IMG/VR virus record: IMGVR_UViG_3300028048_000115
Location: 1-18,060 of that record
Source of the DNA: a virus
Taxonomy: Duplodnaviria; Heunggongvirae; Uroviricota; Caudoviricetes
Length of the DNA stretch: 18,060 nt
Reading direction: 5' to 3' (one strand)
A model generated the notes under the pieces. It ran no database searches, was not told the DNA's origin, and was given only the letters and a program-made list of their open reading frames with translations. Each line of letters opens with the position of its first letter. Position 1 is the stretch's first letter. Of the stretch, positions 3,613 through 9,832 are shown piece by piece. Made by a program: the position numbers and the translations under genes.

Positions 3613-3771
3613 ATGTTTGAGATTATAGAAGAAAAAGAGGTTATTAAAAAAAATGTTGAAACCGCAGAAACGGATATTAAGGATCCTATCGAGAAAAAGA
3701 TTGAGGAACTTGAAAAGAAAATCAAGGACCTGGAAACACGTTTAGAAGAAATCGAATGGAGATTTGAGTAA
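3613..3771 (+). CDS. 52-aa acidic coiled-coil protein (MFEIIEEKEV...LEEIEWRFE), not in the ORF track
   Basis: Open frame between the promoter and gp39, heptad pattern IEEKIEELEKKIKDLETRLEEI-like, and its stop overlaps the gp39 ATG (TAATG). Confidence 0.7.
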   Translation: MFEIIEEKEVIKKNVETAETDIKDPIEKKIEELEKKIKDLETRLEEIEWRFE

Positions 3772-5291
3772 TGGAAAATTACCTTAAAAAGACCTCACGT
3801 GAGCATATTCTTGAAAGACCAAATATGTACATTGGTGCTAACAATCTTGTTAAGTCCAATGAATACGTTTTGATCAACGACTCCCGCATTGGTATCAAAG
3901 AAGTCGAGTATGTTCCTGGGCTGCTTAAAATCATCAATGAAATTATTGACAATTCCGTTGATATTGCAATCAAGACGGGTTTTAAAGGTTGTAATGAAAT
4001 TTCCGTAAAAATGTACCCAGACTACGTGGAAGTTGTAGATAATGGACCTGGTATTCCTGTAAAGAAAAACACCGACGGGGAGTGGATCCCATTTGTGTGT
4101 TGGGGTTATGCAATGTCTGGTTCCAATTTCGGAAATGACCAAAACAGAACTCAAATTGGTATGAACGGCGTTGGTTCTTACTGCACTAATGTTTGGTCCA
4201 AGAAGTTTACTGGTATTTCTGATGACGGGGAAAACCGTTATGAGATTACCTTTAAAGATAATGCTAGTACCTTTGTTGATACCGTTAAAAAGTCCGTAGG
4301 ACATGGAGTTTCAGTAAAATTCTATCCTGACTTAGAAAGATTTGGATTAGAGAAAATCACTCAAGAACACATTGACCTAATTAAGCAAAGACTTGTAAAT
4401 CTGAATGTAACATTTCCTGAAATCACTTTTAAATTTAACGGAAAAAAGATAGGTATTACTTCTTTTAAGAAGTACATCAAACTTTTTGGTGACCAATACG
4501 AAGTTTTTGAAACCGAAAATTATCAGTTTGCAATTTTACCATCGGACACAGATGAATTCCAACAGTTTAGTTATGTAAACGGACTTAACATCAAAGACGG
4601 TGGAACCCACATTGATATTATCAGTTCTTACGTTTCTAATGGTATTAGGGACAAGTTAATCAGAAAGTACAAAACCTTAAAGCCAGCCGATATTAAGAAC
4701 AAACTTATGGTGGTTGCCTTTATCAAGAATTTTGCAAATCCAAAATTTAACTCACAGACTAAAGAAAAGATTACCAATACCACAGGTGAAATGAATGCCT
4801 ATTTTGGTGATAGTTCTTGGGAACCAATCATTAAGTCTGTTTTAAAAAATTCTGCCATCATTGACCCTATCGTTGATGTCTTCAAAATCAAGGAAGAGTT
4901 AAAGCGTAAAGCAGAAATGAAGGCAATTAGTAAACCTAAGAAAATCAAGAATGACAAATATGTTCCTGCAAATAAAGAAAATAAGTATCTAATGATTACC
5001 GAAGGTGAATCAGCCGCAGGTTCATTAATGCCAACTTTTGGAATGGAAGAGTGCGGTTATTATATGTTGAAAGGTAAACCATTAAATGCTTGGGACGTTT
5101 CTCAGCAGAAATTCACTTCCAATAAAGAATTATCTGATCTGTATAATATTATTAAAAATACAACTCACGAATCACCTGAAGAAGATGGCGACTGGTATGA
5201 AATAGAAATAGATGGCAAAATGCAAATAGTTAATGAGAATGACGAAATCTTTTATAAAGGTTCTTGGAAATTAGTTAAGGATTTACTATAA
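3771..5291 (+). CDS. gp39: Type II topoisomerase large subunit (GHKL ATPase, transducer, N-terminal half of TOPRIM), T4 gp39-like
   Basis: EHILERPNMYIG, EIIDNSVD, DNGPGIP, GMNGVG, ITEGESA, LKGKPLN. Ends before the DxD motif and carries a 43-aa extra tail. Confidence 0.95.
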   Translation: MENYLKKTSREHILERPNMYIGANNLVKSNEYVLINDSRIGIKEVEYVPGLLKIINEIIDNSVDIAIKTGFKGCNEISVKMYPDYVEVVDNGPGIPVKKNTDGEWIPFVCWGYAMSGSNFGNDQNRTQIGMNGVGSYCTNVWSKKFTGISDDGENRYEITFKDNASTFVDTVKKSVGHGVSVKFYPDLERFGLEKITQEHIDLIKQRLVNLNVTFPEITFKFNGKKIGITSFKKYIKLFGDQYEVFETENYQFAILPSDTDEFQQFSYVNGLNIKDGGTHIDIISSYVSNGIRDKLIRKYKTLKPADIKNKLMVVAFIKNFANPKFNSQTKEKITNTTGEMNAYFGDSSWEPIIKSVLKNSAIIDPIVDVFKIKEELKRKAEMKAISKPKKIKNDKYVPANKENKYLMITEGESAAGSLMPTFGMEECGYYMLKGKPLNAWDVSQQKFTSNKELSDLYNIIKNTTHESPEEDGDWYEIEIDGKMQIVNENDEIFYKGSWKLVKDLL

Positions 5292-6279
5292 TGTTGCATT
5301 ATGTTTATAGATTAACAGATACAAATCCTAGAGGTGATCTTAAACATTATATAGGAAAAAGGTCCTCAAAATATATTGATATTGGTAAAGAATATTTTAC
5401 TTCATCAAAAATTTTAAATGAATATTTTAGACACAATGTAAAACAGTTTAAAATAAAAGTTGTCAAAATTTTTAATACAAGTGCCGAAGCATTAATGTTC
5501 GAAAAACAATATTTAAATAGAGTTAAAGCATCCAAATCACCTCTTTTTTATAACAGATGTAATTCCGGTAGTAATGGCCGAAATGACAATGCAGGTATTG
5601 TTCACGTTCTTTTAAAAGAAAATGGTTTACCAATATCTGTATCTTGCGAAGAATACTATTCTCACCAAGAAAAATATATTCCTCTAAATAAAGGAAAAAC
5701 AATTTATAGAGATTCAAAAGGAAATTTGGTTCATTGTACCAAAGAATATGCTAAGGAAATAATTTAGTCGGTTTGAATTATGGATTTGTTTATACTAAAG
5801 ATAAAAACGGAAATAAAGTAAAAGTTTCAAAAGAATATTATAATTCTCATAAAGATGAATTTGAATTTAGAGAAAAAAGAATCATGGCATACAATATTAA
5901 AACTAATGAGAACGTATGCGTAACAAAAGAAGAATTTGAAAATAACGAAAATTTAAAAGGAATGTATGCCAAATATCAACGTGAATATAAACAATGTCCT
6001 TATTGTAATAATATGATTTCTGTTCAAAATTATGATAGACATATTTCAACATATAAAAACAGATATTATTGGGTATCTGATGGGGAAAATATTTTTAAAT
6101 GTAGGCAAGATGTTTATTGGTTGCATTATAAAAAAGATTATGTTATACTTAATAATATTAATGATCATCATAAATCATTAAATAATAATTATGTCCCATT
6201 AAATGGAAAATTGTATCACATTAGATATGTTGCAAAAATTAGAAAAAATTGTTATATAGGTAAAGAATATGAAAATTAA
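5291..6279 (+). pseudogene. Free-standing GIY-YIG (Seg-like) homing endonuclease, frameshifted near 5755-5760
   Basis: YVY...HYIG, YFTSSK, EALMFE...L, LFYN catalytic domain followed by repeated G-x-V-x-x-K/R-D/E-x-x-G...V-S/T-x-EEY/F modules that continue in ORF 5773..6279. One extra A in AAGGAAAT joins the two frames. Confidence 0.75.
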
Positions 6280-6814
6280 TAAATTAAAAACAATCACAGA
6301 TGAACAATTATCAGCATATAAGAATAATCCTAATATTAGACGAAGAAAAGTATTAAAGAGTGGATATCAATATATTGTTTATGCAACCGATCAGGATTTA
6401 GACTGACCCTTTGGGGGGGGTCAGTATAATTAAGGAAAAAAAGACGGCATACACATCCGTTCGTTACTTAGTGGGTTTATTCACAAGTATTTACCTGAAT
6501 ACGAAGGCCGTGTAGGTATTCTTGATACACCTGTTGTCGCATTTTTCAAGAATGATAAAATTCAGCATTGGATTTACAATCTTAATGAAGATATTGAAAT
6601 AAAGAAAGGCGAAAAGTCATTTTATTTCAAAGGTCTTGGTTCTTGGGACAAAAACGATTTACAGGAAGTTATTAAGGTCGATGGAATTGAAAAGATGATA
6701 AGTATCATCAATTTTGAAAACGGTGAGGAAAATCTTAATGATTGGTTAGGTTCTGATAGTGCTCCTAGAAAGAAGTTTATTCTTGAAAATACTTTTAGTA
6801 TAGCAGACGCTTAG
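6269..6814 (+). CDS. gp60: Type II topoisomerase small subunit, T4 gp60-like: 45 codons (6269-6403), 42-nt coding gap (6404-6445), 122 codons (6446-6811); predicted 167 aa by translational bypass
   Basis: Manual translation gives MKINKL...YIVYATDQDLD | GIHIRSLL...LDTPVV...YFKGLGSW...RKKFI, supplying the TOPRIM DxDG and KGLG motifs missing from gp39. Confidence 0.9.
6401..6445 (+). other. Putative programmed ribosomal bypass (hop) element
   Basis: Take-off GAC 6401-6403, stop TGA 6404-6406, hairpin ACTGACCC 6402-6409 with GGGTCAGT 6418-6425, second in-frame stop TAA 6431-6433, AAGGA 6432-6436, landing GAC 6443-6445. Confidence 0.8.
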
Positions 6815-6876: not shown

Positions 6877-6911
6877 ATACATAGTAAGAAATGACTTTTT
6901 ATGGAGTTAAG

Positions 6912-8015
6912 ATGAGTTCTACCATTACATTGACTGGTTCTACCATTACATTGACTGGAAAATATGCAGATGCATTTTTTCATACCAAAAATGTTGACCA
7001 GAATACACTTTTTCAAGTCAAAGCGCTGATTGACTGTGACCTTTCAGAGGGTAGTGTTATCCACATAATGCCTGATTGCCACACAGGCAAAGGTTGCACC
7101 ATTGGAACTACAATGACTATCAATGATAAATTGTGTCCTAACCTTGTGGGTGTTGATGTGGGGTGCGCCATTTTATGCTTAAAGGTACAGGGAGATTTTT
7201 CAGTTGATGACTTCTTGGATGCTTGTGAGAAAGTCCCAGCTGGTGTAGGTAAATACAACTCGGAAATGAAGGAGTTTGATGACCTTAAGAATTTATCTTT
7301 TAAGTTAGATAACCCAGATCAAATTTTGCGTTCTATCGGATCGTTAGGTAGTGGTAACCACTTCATTGAATTAAACGAAGACGAAGACGGTAACCGTTAT
7401 ATTGTTATTCATAGTGGTTCAAGAAATCTAGGAATTCAAGTATGCAGTCACCACATGAAAATTGCAAAGCAAACCAATCCAAGAGGTGACCTGTCTTTCT
7501 TAACAGGAACCAATTTTGATGACTATCTGAATGATATGCGGATTTGTCAAACCTATGCTCAGAAAAATCGTTTAGAGATTGGTGACACCATTCTAAGAAA
7601 TTTAGGAAATACTAGAATAGTTGGTGCATTTGTAACAGTTCACAATTACATAGATTTTGATGATAAAATTCTAAGAAAGGGTGCTATTTCCTGTAGTAAG
7701 GGTAAAAAAGTTCTAATTCCATTTAATATGAGAGATGGAAGTGTAATCGCAATTGGTAAGGGAAACCCTGATTGGAATTTCTCTGGTCCACATGGTGCAG
7801 GTAGAATTTTATCACGTACCCAGGCAAGGAAGAGTTTAACTCTTGAAGATTTCCAAAACGCTATGACTGGAATTTCTTCAAGGACTGTATGTCAGAAAAC
7901 AATTGATGAGGCTCCACAAGTTTATAAGGATGCTAAAGAAATTGAGAATTTAATTTCGGAAACAGTAGAAGTTCAAAAGCACTTGAAGGTTGTTGCAAAT
8001 TTCAAGGGAATTTAA
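6912..8015 (+). CDS. rtcB: RtcB-family RNA ligase
   Basis: MPDCHTGKG, VGVDVGC, GSLGSGNHFIE, IHSGSRNLG, VHNY, RKGA, PHGAGR, DEAPQVYK. ATG 6912 follows GGAG (6903-6906). Confidence 0.93.
   Translation: MSSTITLTGSTITLTGKYADAFFHTKNVDQNTLFQVKALIDCDLSEGSVIHIMPDCHTGKGCTIGTTMTINDKLCPNLVGVDVGCAILCLKVQGDFSVDDFLDACEKVPAGVGKYNSEMKEFDDLKNLSFKLDNPDQILRSIGSLGSGNHFIELNEDEDGNRYIVIHSGSRNLGIQVCSHHMKIAKQTNPRGDLSFLTGTNFDDYLNDMRICQTYAQKNRLEIGDTILRNLGNTRIVGAFVTVHNYIDFDDKILRKGAISCSKGKKVLIPFNMRDGSVIAIGKGNPDWNFSGPHGAGRILSRTQARKSLTLEDFQNAMTGISSRTVCQKTIDEAPQVYKDAKEIENLISETVEVQKHLKVVANFKGI
6916..6957. repeat. Perfect 21-bp tandem duplication (STITLTG twice)
   Basis: GTTCTACCATTACATTGACTG at 6916-6936 and 6937-6957. Confidence 0.95.
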
Positions 8016-8039: not shown

Positions 8040-8525
8040 ATGAATTTTTTGATCGAAAATGCAGATGAAATTTTAAAAACCCAAGAAGCAGAACGTGAAA
8101 AACTTTGGAAGTTTGATGAACTTTGTAAGGAAATGTTAAAGGAGCGAGGGAGCAATTATGTAACCATAAGGAAGTTTTGTATAAAGAACTTCAGAAGTGC
8201 TCCTTTATGGGACATTGAAAAGGTTTTTACACTTTTAAAATCTCAAGATCCAACACTTGATAAAGAGTGGAGTTTAAACTACATAGCATATTTTAAAAAA
8301 TATTATGAACAGTTTCCTAATGATAACCTTTGGAATAAGGAAATGATAAATCATTATAATAAGTTATCAGACGGAGATAAAGCATATTACAAAGTTCTTT
8401 CAGACTTAAAAAAATCAATCAAAAAAAATTTTAAAAGGTATACAGTTAAAGATCTTTGTGATATAATAAAGAAAAATGAAAAATTTAGACAAGCAATGTT
8501 AATAAACTTAATGGAAACTTGGTAA
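8040..8525 (+). CDS. Hypothetical protein (161 aa)
   Basis: Long ORF tightly packed between rtcB and gp52 (TAATG overlap); no motif recognised. Confidence 0.75.
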   Translation: MNFLIENADEILKTQEAEREKLWKFDELCKEMLKERGSNYVTIRKFCIKNFRSAPLWDIEKVFTLLKSQDPTLDKEWSLNYIAYFKKYYEQFPNDNLWNKEMINHYNKLSDGDKAYYKVLSDLKKSIKKNFKRYTVKDLCDIIKKNEKFRQAMLINLMETW

Positions 8526-9832
8526 TGCAGGAAATTTCAATCAAAGATTTACTCAATGGACAGTTAGTTAATTATGCAAGCTATGACAATATCCGAAAAA
8601 TCGGAAGTGCGATTGACGGATTAAAGAACGCGGCTAGAAAGGTTATCTTTACTGTTCACGAAAAAAAGATTAAAGATAAAACAAAGGTTTTACAGTTATC
8701 AAATAAGTGTGCGGAATATGCAGACTATTTACACGGTTCCTTAGATGGTGTTGTCGTAACATTGGGCCAAGATTTTGCTGGAACCAATAATATTCCTTTA
8801 ATTCAGAAATTTGGTAACTTTGGAACAAGATGTATTCAGGAGGCATCAGCACCAAGATACATTTTTGCAAAAGGTTCCGATGCTCTGTTTGAACTGTTTA
8901 AGTACGAAGATGACGAAATCCTAGACCAACAGTTTTTTGAGGGTTCCCGAATTGAACCTAAGTTTTATGTCCCAACTTTGCCAATGCTTTTGGTGAACGG
9001 AAGTGAGGGCGTATCTAGTGGTTTTGCTCAAAAGATTTTACCTAGAAATCCAGAAAAACTAAAGCAATATATCTTAGAAAAGTTGTCTGGAAAGGAACCT
9101 TCAACTGAATTATTAAACCCTTGGATCAAGAATTTTAACGGCTCTTTTGAACAGGGTGAGGAACCAAACAAGTGGATTGTCAAGGGAAAGATTGAACACG
9201 TAAAAGGAAATGAATATCTGATTTCTGAAATTCCATTTACCTATGACTTAAAGAGTTATGTTAAGGTGCTCGATGATTTATCAGATAAGAAGAATATTAT
9301 CAGATATTCAAATGAGAGTGACGGTGAAAACACCTTAAAATTCAGAGTCACCCTCCCAAGAGGAATTGATACATCTGAAGACGCCTTGTTAGAGCGTTTA
9401 AAACTTTTAAAACCAATTTCAGAAAACTATACAAGTATTGATGATAATCTCAAGGTTAGAGAATTTAAAAATTCCAAAGAAATTATTGACTTTTATATAG
9501 ATATAAAATTAAAATATTTAAATAAGAGAAAGATATTTTTAATTGAAAAAATCAATACAGAATTAAGCATTTTAAAGATGAAGTCAAAATTTTTAAATGA
9601 ATATATTTCTGGGTCCATCAAAATTCAAAATGTTTCAAAGTCTGAAATTGAAAAACAGTTAGTAGATTATTTAAAGGTTGATGGAAGTTATAACTATCTT
9701 ATCGGAATGCCAATTTACTCTTTAACTTCAGAAAAACTTGAGGAGTTAGAAAAGACAATTGCTCAAACTGAAAAGACTCTTTCAAAAACCCAGAAAACAA
9801 GTATCGAAAAAATGTGGAGCTCTGAACTTTGA
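8525..9832 (+). CDS. gp52: Type II topoisomerase medium subunit (GyrA/ParC-like), T4 gp52-like
   Basis: DGLKNAARKV, YLHG, GNFG, ASAPRYI (catalytic Tyr), PMLLVNGSEGVSSGFA. Start placed at the TAATG overlap. Confidence 0.95.
   Translation: MQEISIKDLLNGQLVNYASYDNIRKIGSAIDGLKNAARKVIFTVHEKKIKDKTKVLQLSNKCAEYADYLHGSLDGVVVTLGQDFAGTNNIPLIQKFGNFGTRCIQEASAPRYIFAKGSDALFELFKYEDDEILDQQFFEGSRIEPKFYVPTLPMLLVNGSEGVSSGFAQKILPRNPEKLKQYILEKLSGKEPSTELLNPWIKNFNGSFEQGEEPNKWIVKGKIEHVKGNEYLISEIPFTYDLKSYVKVLDDLSDKKNIIRYSNESDGENTLKFRVTLPRGIDTSEDALLERLKLLKPISENYTSIDDNLKVREFKNSKEIIDFYIDIKLKYLNKRKIFLIEKINTELSILKMKSKFLNEYISGSIKIQNVSKSEIEKQLVDYLKVDGSYNYLIGMPIYSLTSEKLEELEKTIAQTEKTLSKTQKTSIEKMWSSEL

Follow-up and report, generated by a model that had tools for sequence, protein, structure and literature searches.

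Gene 60 of bacteriophage T4, with the nascent-peptide signal KKYKLQNNVRRSIKSSS, is the textbook case of ribosome hopping, with a bypass of 50 nt. Translation of NC_000866 gave a T4 leader of 46 residues with YKLQNNVRR at positions 16-24, as the original prediction stated. In the T4 take-off ribosome, Tyr16 contacts Arg95 of L22, and Arg24 and Ser28 contact L4 (PMC5462505), and the nascent peptide has an approximately 9-fold effect on bypass efficiency (bioRxiv 10.1101/2024.12.09.627546). Manning and Atkins (bioRxiv 10.1101/2022.08.31.505936) described the cassette family from six genome clades and from 13 metagenomic cases. According to the same preprint, the MobA endonuclease is replaced by a GIY-YIG enzyme in clades 9 and 10, most metagenomic sequences take off from Asp with GAC, three have UGA stops, and UUUG loops occur; the conservation of the ORF2 leader is treated there as well, in an alignment with the T4 residues to which cryo-EM and mutagenesis point, and the gapless clades 7, 8 and 20 retain this leader (bioRxiv 10.1101/2022.08.31.505936).

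The DNA analyzed here, an 18,060-nt stretch that we call the window, makes up the opening 18 kb of an IMG/VR virus record of 87.7 kb and derives from an AT-rich T4-like phage. Its source contig, IMGVR_UViG_3300028048_000115 from bovine rumen, is MGS7 of clade 9 in Table S2 and File S2 of Manning and Atkins. ORF1 (cl9_ORF1_MGS7), the endonuclease (MGS7_endo, flagged 'has f/s'), ORF2 and the gap DNA with its run of eight G are identical to the preprint entries, such that, among the clade 9 and 10 metagenomic bypass cassettes, the contig is MGS7 with no difference at the locus. The finding on the leader is therefore already known, both the contig and the conservation of its leader having been published in 2022. 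What we add are relatives with gaps of 32-39 nt, a near-identical un-inserted relative (P0055), a re-fused form (P0053), and counts of conserved residues in gapped and gapless forms.

The features of the locus, collected in Table 1, follow the gene 60 plan. The large subunit of a topoisomerase II is split inside its TOPRIM domain: ORF1 encodes the ATPase and the first TOPRIM half and ends in an element-encoded C-terminal extension, a homing endonuclease gene lies between ORF1 and ORF2, and ORF2 begins with a leader (MKINKLKTITDEQLSAYKNNPNIRRRKVLKSGYQYIVYATDQDLD) made up of a 32-residue unique N-terminal extension and a 13-residue topoisomerase-like segment up to the take-off Asp. The leader ORF overlaps the 3' end of the endonuclease gene by 11 nt. 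[quoted passage not shown] Toward the 3' end of the gap, which is A/U-rich, GGA is followed by six A and then the landing codon, placing the mini Shine-Dalgarno within the 5-7 nt range.

Table 1. Coordinates of the split topoisomerase cassette in the window, with the basis of assignment where one is recorded.
Feature	Position	Strand	Basis
ORF1 (506 aa), N-terminal part of the large subunit of topoisomerase II, gene 39-like	3771..5291	+	Pfam HATPase_c, DNA_gyraseB
C-terminal extension (CTE) of ORF1, acidic, invariant VNEND core	5157..5288	+	BLASTP against T4 gp39 tail; alignment of tails
GIY-YIG homing endonuclease gene, two ORFs (5291-5767, 5773-6279) via frameshift	5291..6279	+	
Leader of ORF2 (gene 60-like), 45 codons, ATG at 6269	6269..6403	+	
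Motif YKNNPNIRR, leader residues 17-25	6317..6343	+	alignment
Take-off codon GAC (Asp45, 6401-6403), then stop TGA (6404-6406)	6401..6406	+	
Take-off stem-loop of 10 bp, two of them G-U, with a 4-nt loop	6402..6425	+	
Second in-frame stop TAA (6431-6433); mini Shine-Dalgarno GGA (6434-6436), 6 nt before landing	6431..6436	+	
Landing GAC (6443-6445), then 122-residue rest of TOPRIM domain (GIHIRSLL...), stop TAG (6812-6814)	6443..6814	+	

The endonuclease ORFs gave weak matches to Pfam SegE_GIY-YIG and GIY-YIG and a PHROG homing endonuclease match at E 1.6e-10. The frameshift between them (5767-5773) separates the nuclease domain from the C-terminal part. MobA is inactive in laboratory T4, and the frameshifted enzyme of the window is probably inactive as well. 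An RtcB-like RNA ligase gene (6891-8015) was found between ORF2 and the gp52-like subunit (8519-9832); its start contains a 21-nt direct repeat that encodes STITLTG twice, and the gene is absent at the same place in relatives such as L007.

The prediction that the window leader preserves the T4 nascent-peptide signal was borne out in part, in that several comparisons showed the two leaders to be homologous. The leader matched that of T4 by BLASTP at E 0.005, and the unique leader part, represented by a profile of 23 sequences confined to the N-terminal 32 residues with the topoisomerase-derived end left out, matched T4 residues 1-32 with an hhalign probability of 96.9% and E 1.3e-10. These two E-values rule out a chance resemblance of the leaders. 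Tyr17 and Arg25 of the window align with Tyr16 and Arg24 of T4, and the position of the motif in the 45-residue leader and the predicted distances to take-off (28 codons to Asp45 here, 30 codons to Gly46 in T4) held on translation; measured to the shared Asp45 equivalent, the distances are 28 and 29. As judged from these alignments, the window leader is genuinely homologous to its T4 counterpart, in which the nascent-peptide signal resides. It is also under purifying selection, with dN/dS among relatives of 0.08-0.35.

A word-based search with the 45-aa leader returned two near-identical ORFs only. Among 1.84 billion representative proteins, a profile of the leader had 29 matches, most of them ORFs of 43-53 aa that end exactly at the last (take-off) Asp of DxDxD. 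The acidic tail of ORF1 has a counterpart in T4 as well, with its 43 residues (EDGDWYEIEIDGKMQIVNENDEI...) matching the gp39 tail at E 4e-11 with 47% identity by BLASTP. MAFFT repeatedly placed the tail segment IVNENDE on IVYATDQD, and the idea that the tail is a decayed copy of a TOPRIM strand was rejected (hhalign probability 0.85%, E 0.065).

[quoted passage not shown] Within the leader the window has SAYK where T4 has KKYK, and thus lacks the lysines before Tyr, and it is one residue shorter between the Arg and the TOPRIM strand. The endonuclease is of the GIY-YIG type, whereas T4 MobA is an HNH enzyme. The ORF1 tail, leader, split site and gap architecture are all homologous to those of T4 and were jointly inherited as one mobile cassette. 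The original prediction had treated the motif as independent support for bypassing, which does not follow, because the whole split-topoisomerase cassette is one mobile-element family in which the motif, the ORF1 tail, the split site and the gap plan are inherited together.

Evidence on whether the gap is bypassed came from the gaps of relatives. Six gap variants were found in the window and its close relatives, with lengths of 42 (the window), 36, 39, 32, 37 and 37 nt, the last two being distinct sequences; their frames are 0, 0, 0, 2, 1 and 1, respectively. In all six, take-off is from GAC followed by TGA, and the landing codon is GAC or GAT. More distant relatives have gaps of 28, 31, 41 and 42 nt. 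In-frame readthrough of TGA and TAA was rejected as an explanation, as the gaps of relatives fall in all three frames. The hairpin is kept in relatives, including one A-to-G change that turns a U-A pair into U-G, although the fold of the 91-nt region is unremarkable overall (z -1.0). The frame varies, the Asp codons match, and the window, like most relatives, lacks a start codon ahead of the landing codon; these features argue for hopping rather than for readthrough or a separate start.

We also considered the possibility that no bypass occurs, and that the 45-residue peptide and the C-terminal part are separate pieces of a three-piece enzyme in which the leader never acts as a nascent-chain signal. 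One subclade lends itself to this explanation: in L007 (3968-4006) and P0006-P0011 an ATG directly precedes the landing GAT with AAGGA upstream, and gene callers annotate a 124-aa protein starting MDGTHIR, so that in this subclade the C-terminal part could start on its own. We consider the explanation extremely improbable for the window, where, as in most relatives, such a start codon is missing, where the split would cut the metal-binding DxDxDG motif between Asp and Gly, and where the T4 plan is followed in the matching of the Asp codons, in a stop enclosed by a hairpin and in a mini Shine-Dalgarno at 6 nt.

Several other variants of the gap region were observed. In the window the hairpin contains 8 consecutive G (6413-6420) and 7 A precede the landing codon (6436-6442), where all relatives that were read have 4 G and 4-6 A at the corresponding runs; the gap of 42 nt, compared with 36-39 nt in the closest relatives, is accounted for by this variation in homopolymer length or by assembly noise. 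In L022 (515-680) the leader has 51 aa and finishes with GAT TGA, and only 4 nt after the take-off codon the C-terminal part continues from GAC GGT. This form, known from one contig only, may represent a minimal hop, a +1 shift or an error in the contig. In L034 and L036 (positions ~2150-2210) the leader is two codons shorter at its end than is usual, stopping at ATDQD (GAC, then TAG), and the frame resumes at GAT TTA GAC GGA with GAGG 6 nt before the GAT. L034 matches MGS2, for which an odd Shine-Dalgarno spacing of 12 nt was reported (bioRxiv 10.1101/2022.08.31.505936); landing at the GAT would give the normal 6-nt spacing. L023 (496-680), which encodes P0043, has CGG instead of a stop after take-off and a hairpin CGGC-GUAA-GCCG with a GNRA-type loop, and at the protein level P0026 continues past the take-off Asp into Arg codons.

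The central question is whether the leader motif is tied to bypassing, and it was approached by comparing 22 gapped with 8 gapless leaders in one alignment. The gapless set consisted of four split proteins that the profile had retrieved (P0023, P0027, P0033 and P0038), two found through their C-terminal part (P0012 and P0013), Campylobacter phage CPt10 and the re-fused Aeromonas phage CC2, making this a small sample that was obtained in part with the leader profile, which favours sequences that retain the motif. The Tyr and the second Arg were present in 22/22 gapped and 8/8 gapless leaders. The Ile/Val/Leu position and the Gln/Asn position were each kept in 21/22 gapped and 6/8 gapless leaders, and the first Arg/Lys in 17/22 and 6/8. 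The Tyr-to-Asp spacing was 28 in 19 of the 22 gapped and 6 of the 8 gapless forms, and the Arg-to-Asp spacing was 20 in 21 and 6, respectively; the window, in which Asp45 is 28 residues away from Tyr17 and 20 from Arg25, has the modal spacing of the family. A column-by-column scan of gapped versus gapless leaders gave a smallest p-value of 0.011 over 270 tests, and no difference survives correction. The core residues are thus equally conserved in gapless homologs, and conservation of motif and spacing is not linked to the presence of the gap in the way that a nascent-peptide recoding signal would lead one to expect. Equal conservation in gapless homologs is the outcome that the original prediction itself had named as refuting it, and it counts against a motif specific to bypassing. 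Of the residues proposed to be key (Y, K, N, I/V, R and R), the Tyr, the Ile/Val and the second Arg are conserved family-wide, while the Lys, the Asn and the first Arg proved moderately conserved.

A census that was blind to the leader gave the same picture. IMG/VR was searched with an alignment of the C-terminal part as query, which succeeded where a single C-terminal part had found nothing. Among the 51 loci recovered, 43 encode fused forms that lack a leader; the other eight are split, four with a gap and four without, and all eight keep Y..[IV][RQ]R. Y..[IVL/T]xR is kept throughout the gapless forms found independently of the leader, namely P0012, P0013, CPt10, the re-fused P0053, L035 and the three Campylobacter phage genomes L041-L043, of which CPt10 is one. 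Gapless clade 20, which lies outside our sample, is reported to have lost Tyr16 (bioRxiv 10.1101/2022.08.31.505936). In the Campylobacter Firehammervirus phages (CPt10, CP220 and CP21), ORF2 has the same leader length plan (MDISIKEIQPSSEQLKQYKAQRITQRKRIVKGG...) and a C-terminal part 48% identical to that of the window, but it is gapless, has no endonuclease next to it and occupies a different place in the genome; the leader therefore persists without bypassing.

These results bear on an explanation in which the motif is kept specifically for bypassing and the gapless forms lost their gap too recently for the motif to decay. Mutagenesis and cryo-EM of T4 implicate Tyr16 and Arg24 (PMC5462505), some residues were selectively lost in gapless clades 7, 8 and 20 (bioRxiv 10.1101/2022.08.31.505936), and in our alignment Gln/Asn19 and Val/Ile22 show a weak trend in this direction (p 0.17 each). 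Recent loss is nevertheless difficult to reconcile with gapless forms that are mutually divergent, being representatives of 50%-identity clusters, or with the Campylobacter phages and P0012/P0013, which have moved ORF2 away from ORF1, and the weak trend stands beside a Tyr, an Arg and a spacing that are fixed in gapless leaders. We regard this explanation as unlikely.

The opposite explanation, that the motif serves only the assembly of the split topoisomerase and that take-off depends on the stop codon, hairpin and matched codons alone, would account for retention of the motif where the gap is missing, in split as well as re-fused forms (P0053, Aeromonas CC2 and the Campylobacter phages); the acidic ORF1 tail, the basic leader and the absence here of the KK that precedes Tyr in T4 are also in keeping with it. 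It appears very unlikely, however, given that the two invariant residues are those that contact the tunnel constriction in T4 (PMC5462505), that the T4 nascent peptide affects efficiency to the extent noted above (bioRxiv 10.1101/2024.12.09.627546), and that the take-off spacing is so uniform in the gapped forms.

P0055, a fused protein of 600 aa whose C-terminal part is 99% identical to that of the window, reads IIKNENYQYIVYSTDQDLDG without an ORF1 tail or leader, and ...LYNIIKNENYQYIVYSTDQDLDGIHIRSLL... without tail, leader or gap. Its sequence matches the window exactly as far as the split, and the strand that the element replaced shows a single difference (S for A), which points to a recent insertion of the cassette. 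Since P0055 is without tail, leader and gap, the leader belongs to the mobile cassette and not to the topoisomerase fold; un-inserted fused relatives in general wholly lack it. P0053, a fused large subunit of 666 aa in this clade, has retained both the ORF1 tail and the ORF2 leader, inserted internally, but has neither an endonuclease nor a gap. Such a 'hit and run' state was described earlier for Aeromonas phages.

Our preferred reading, to which we assign a probability of roughly 0.8, is that the leader is an element-encoded N-terminal extension of a split topoisomerase II in the T4 gene 60 cassette family, and that it would serve both as a tunnel signal and as an assembly tag. Its Tyr-x7-Arg core is an inherited, family-wide feature, kept alike in gapped and gapless descendants and absent from un-inserted topoisomerases. 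By homology with T4, we infer that bypassing takes place in the window phage and that the leader has a tunnel role in it. When GAC45 is in the P site and UGA in the A site, the nascent leader would lie in the exit tunnel with Tyr17 28 residues and Arg25 20 residues from the P-site residue, near the same tunnel constriction as in T4 although two residues closer to the peptidyl transferase centre. There the leader may help peptidyl-tRNA-Asp to leave the take-off GAC and re-pair at the landing GAC, as in T4.

In the finished protein, the basic leader and the acidic ORF1 tail may help the halves of the split enzyme to reassemble. This second role is suggested by the persistence of the residues and their spacing without a hop, and by the charge complementarity of the two extensions. 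A predicted complex of the ORF1 tail with the unique leader part scored 0.30, against a mark of 0.32. It is possible, though in our view not probable, that Tyr and Arg are held mainly for docking on the ORF1 tail, with the T4 signal being a re-used assembly tag, or that in gapless forms the leader induces a slowing of translation that favours co-translational assembly.

The natural variants of the T4 leader are useful for dissecting a nascent-chain signal, and this locus, already catalogued, offers one more test substrate, with an Asp take-off codon, a UGA stop, an in-frame gap of 42 nt and no lysine pair ahead of the Tyr. Leader conservation should not be read as evidence of bypassing. The published picture of the family is sharpened in that the two tunnel-contact residues and their spacing are equally fixed in relatives that no longer hop, suggesting that the leader has a second, post-translational role.
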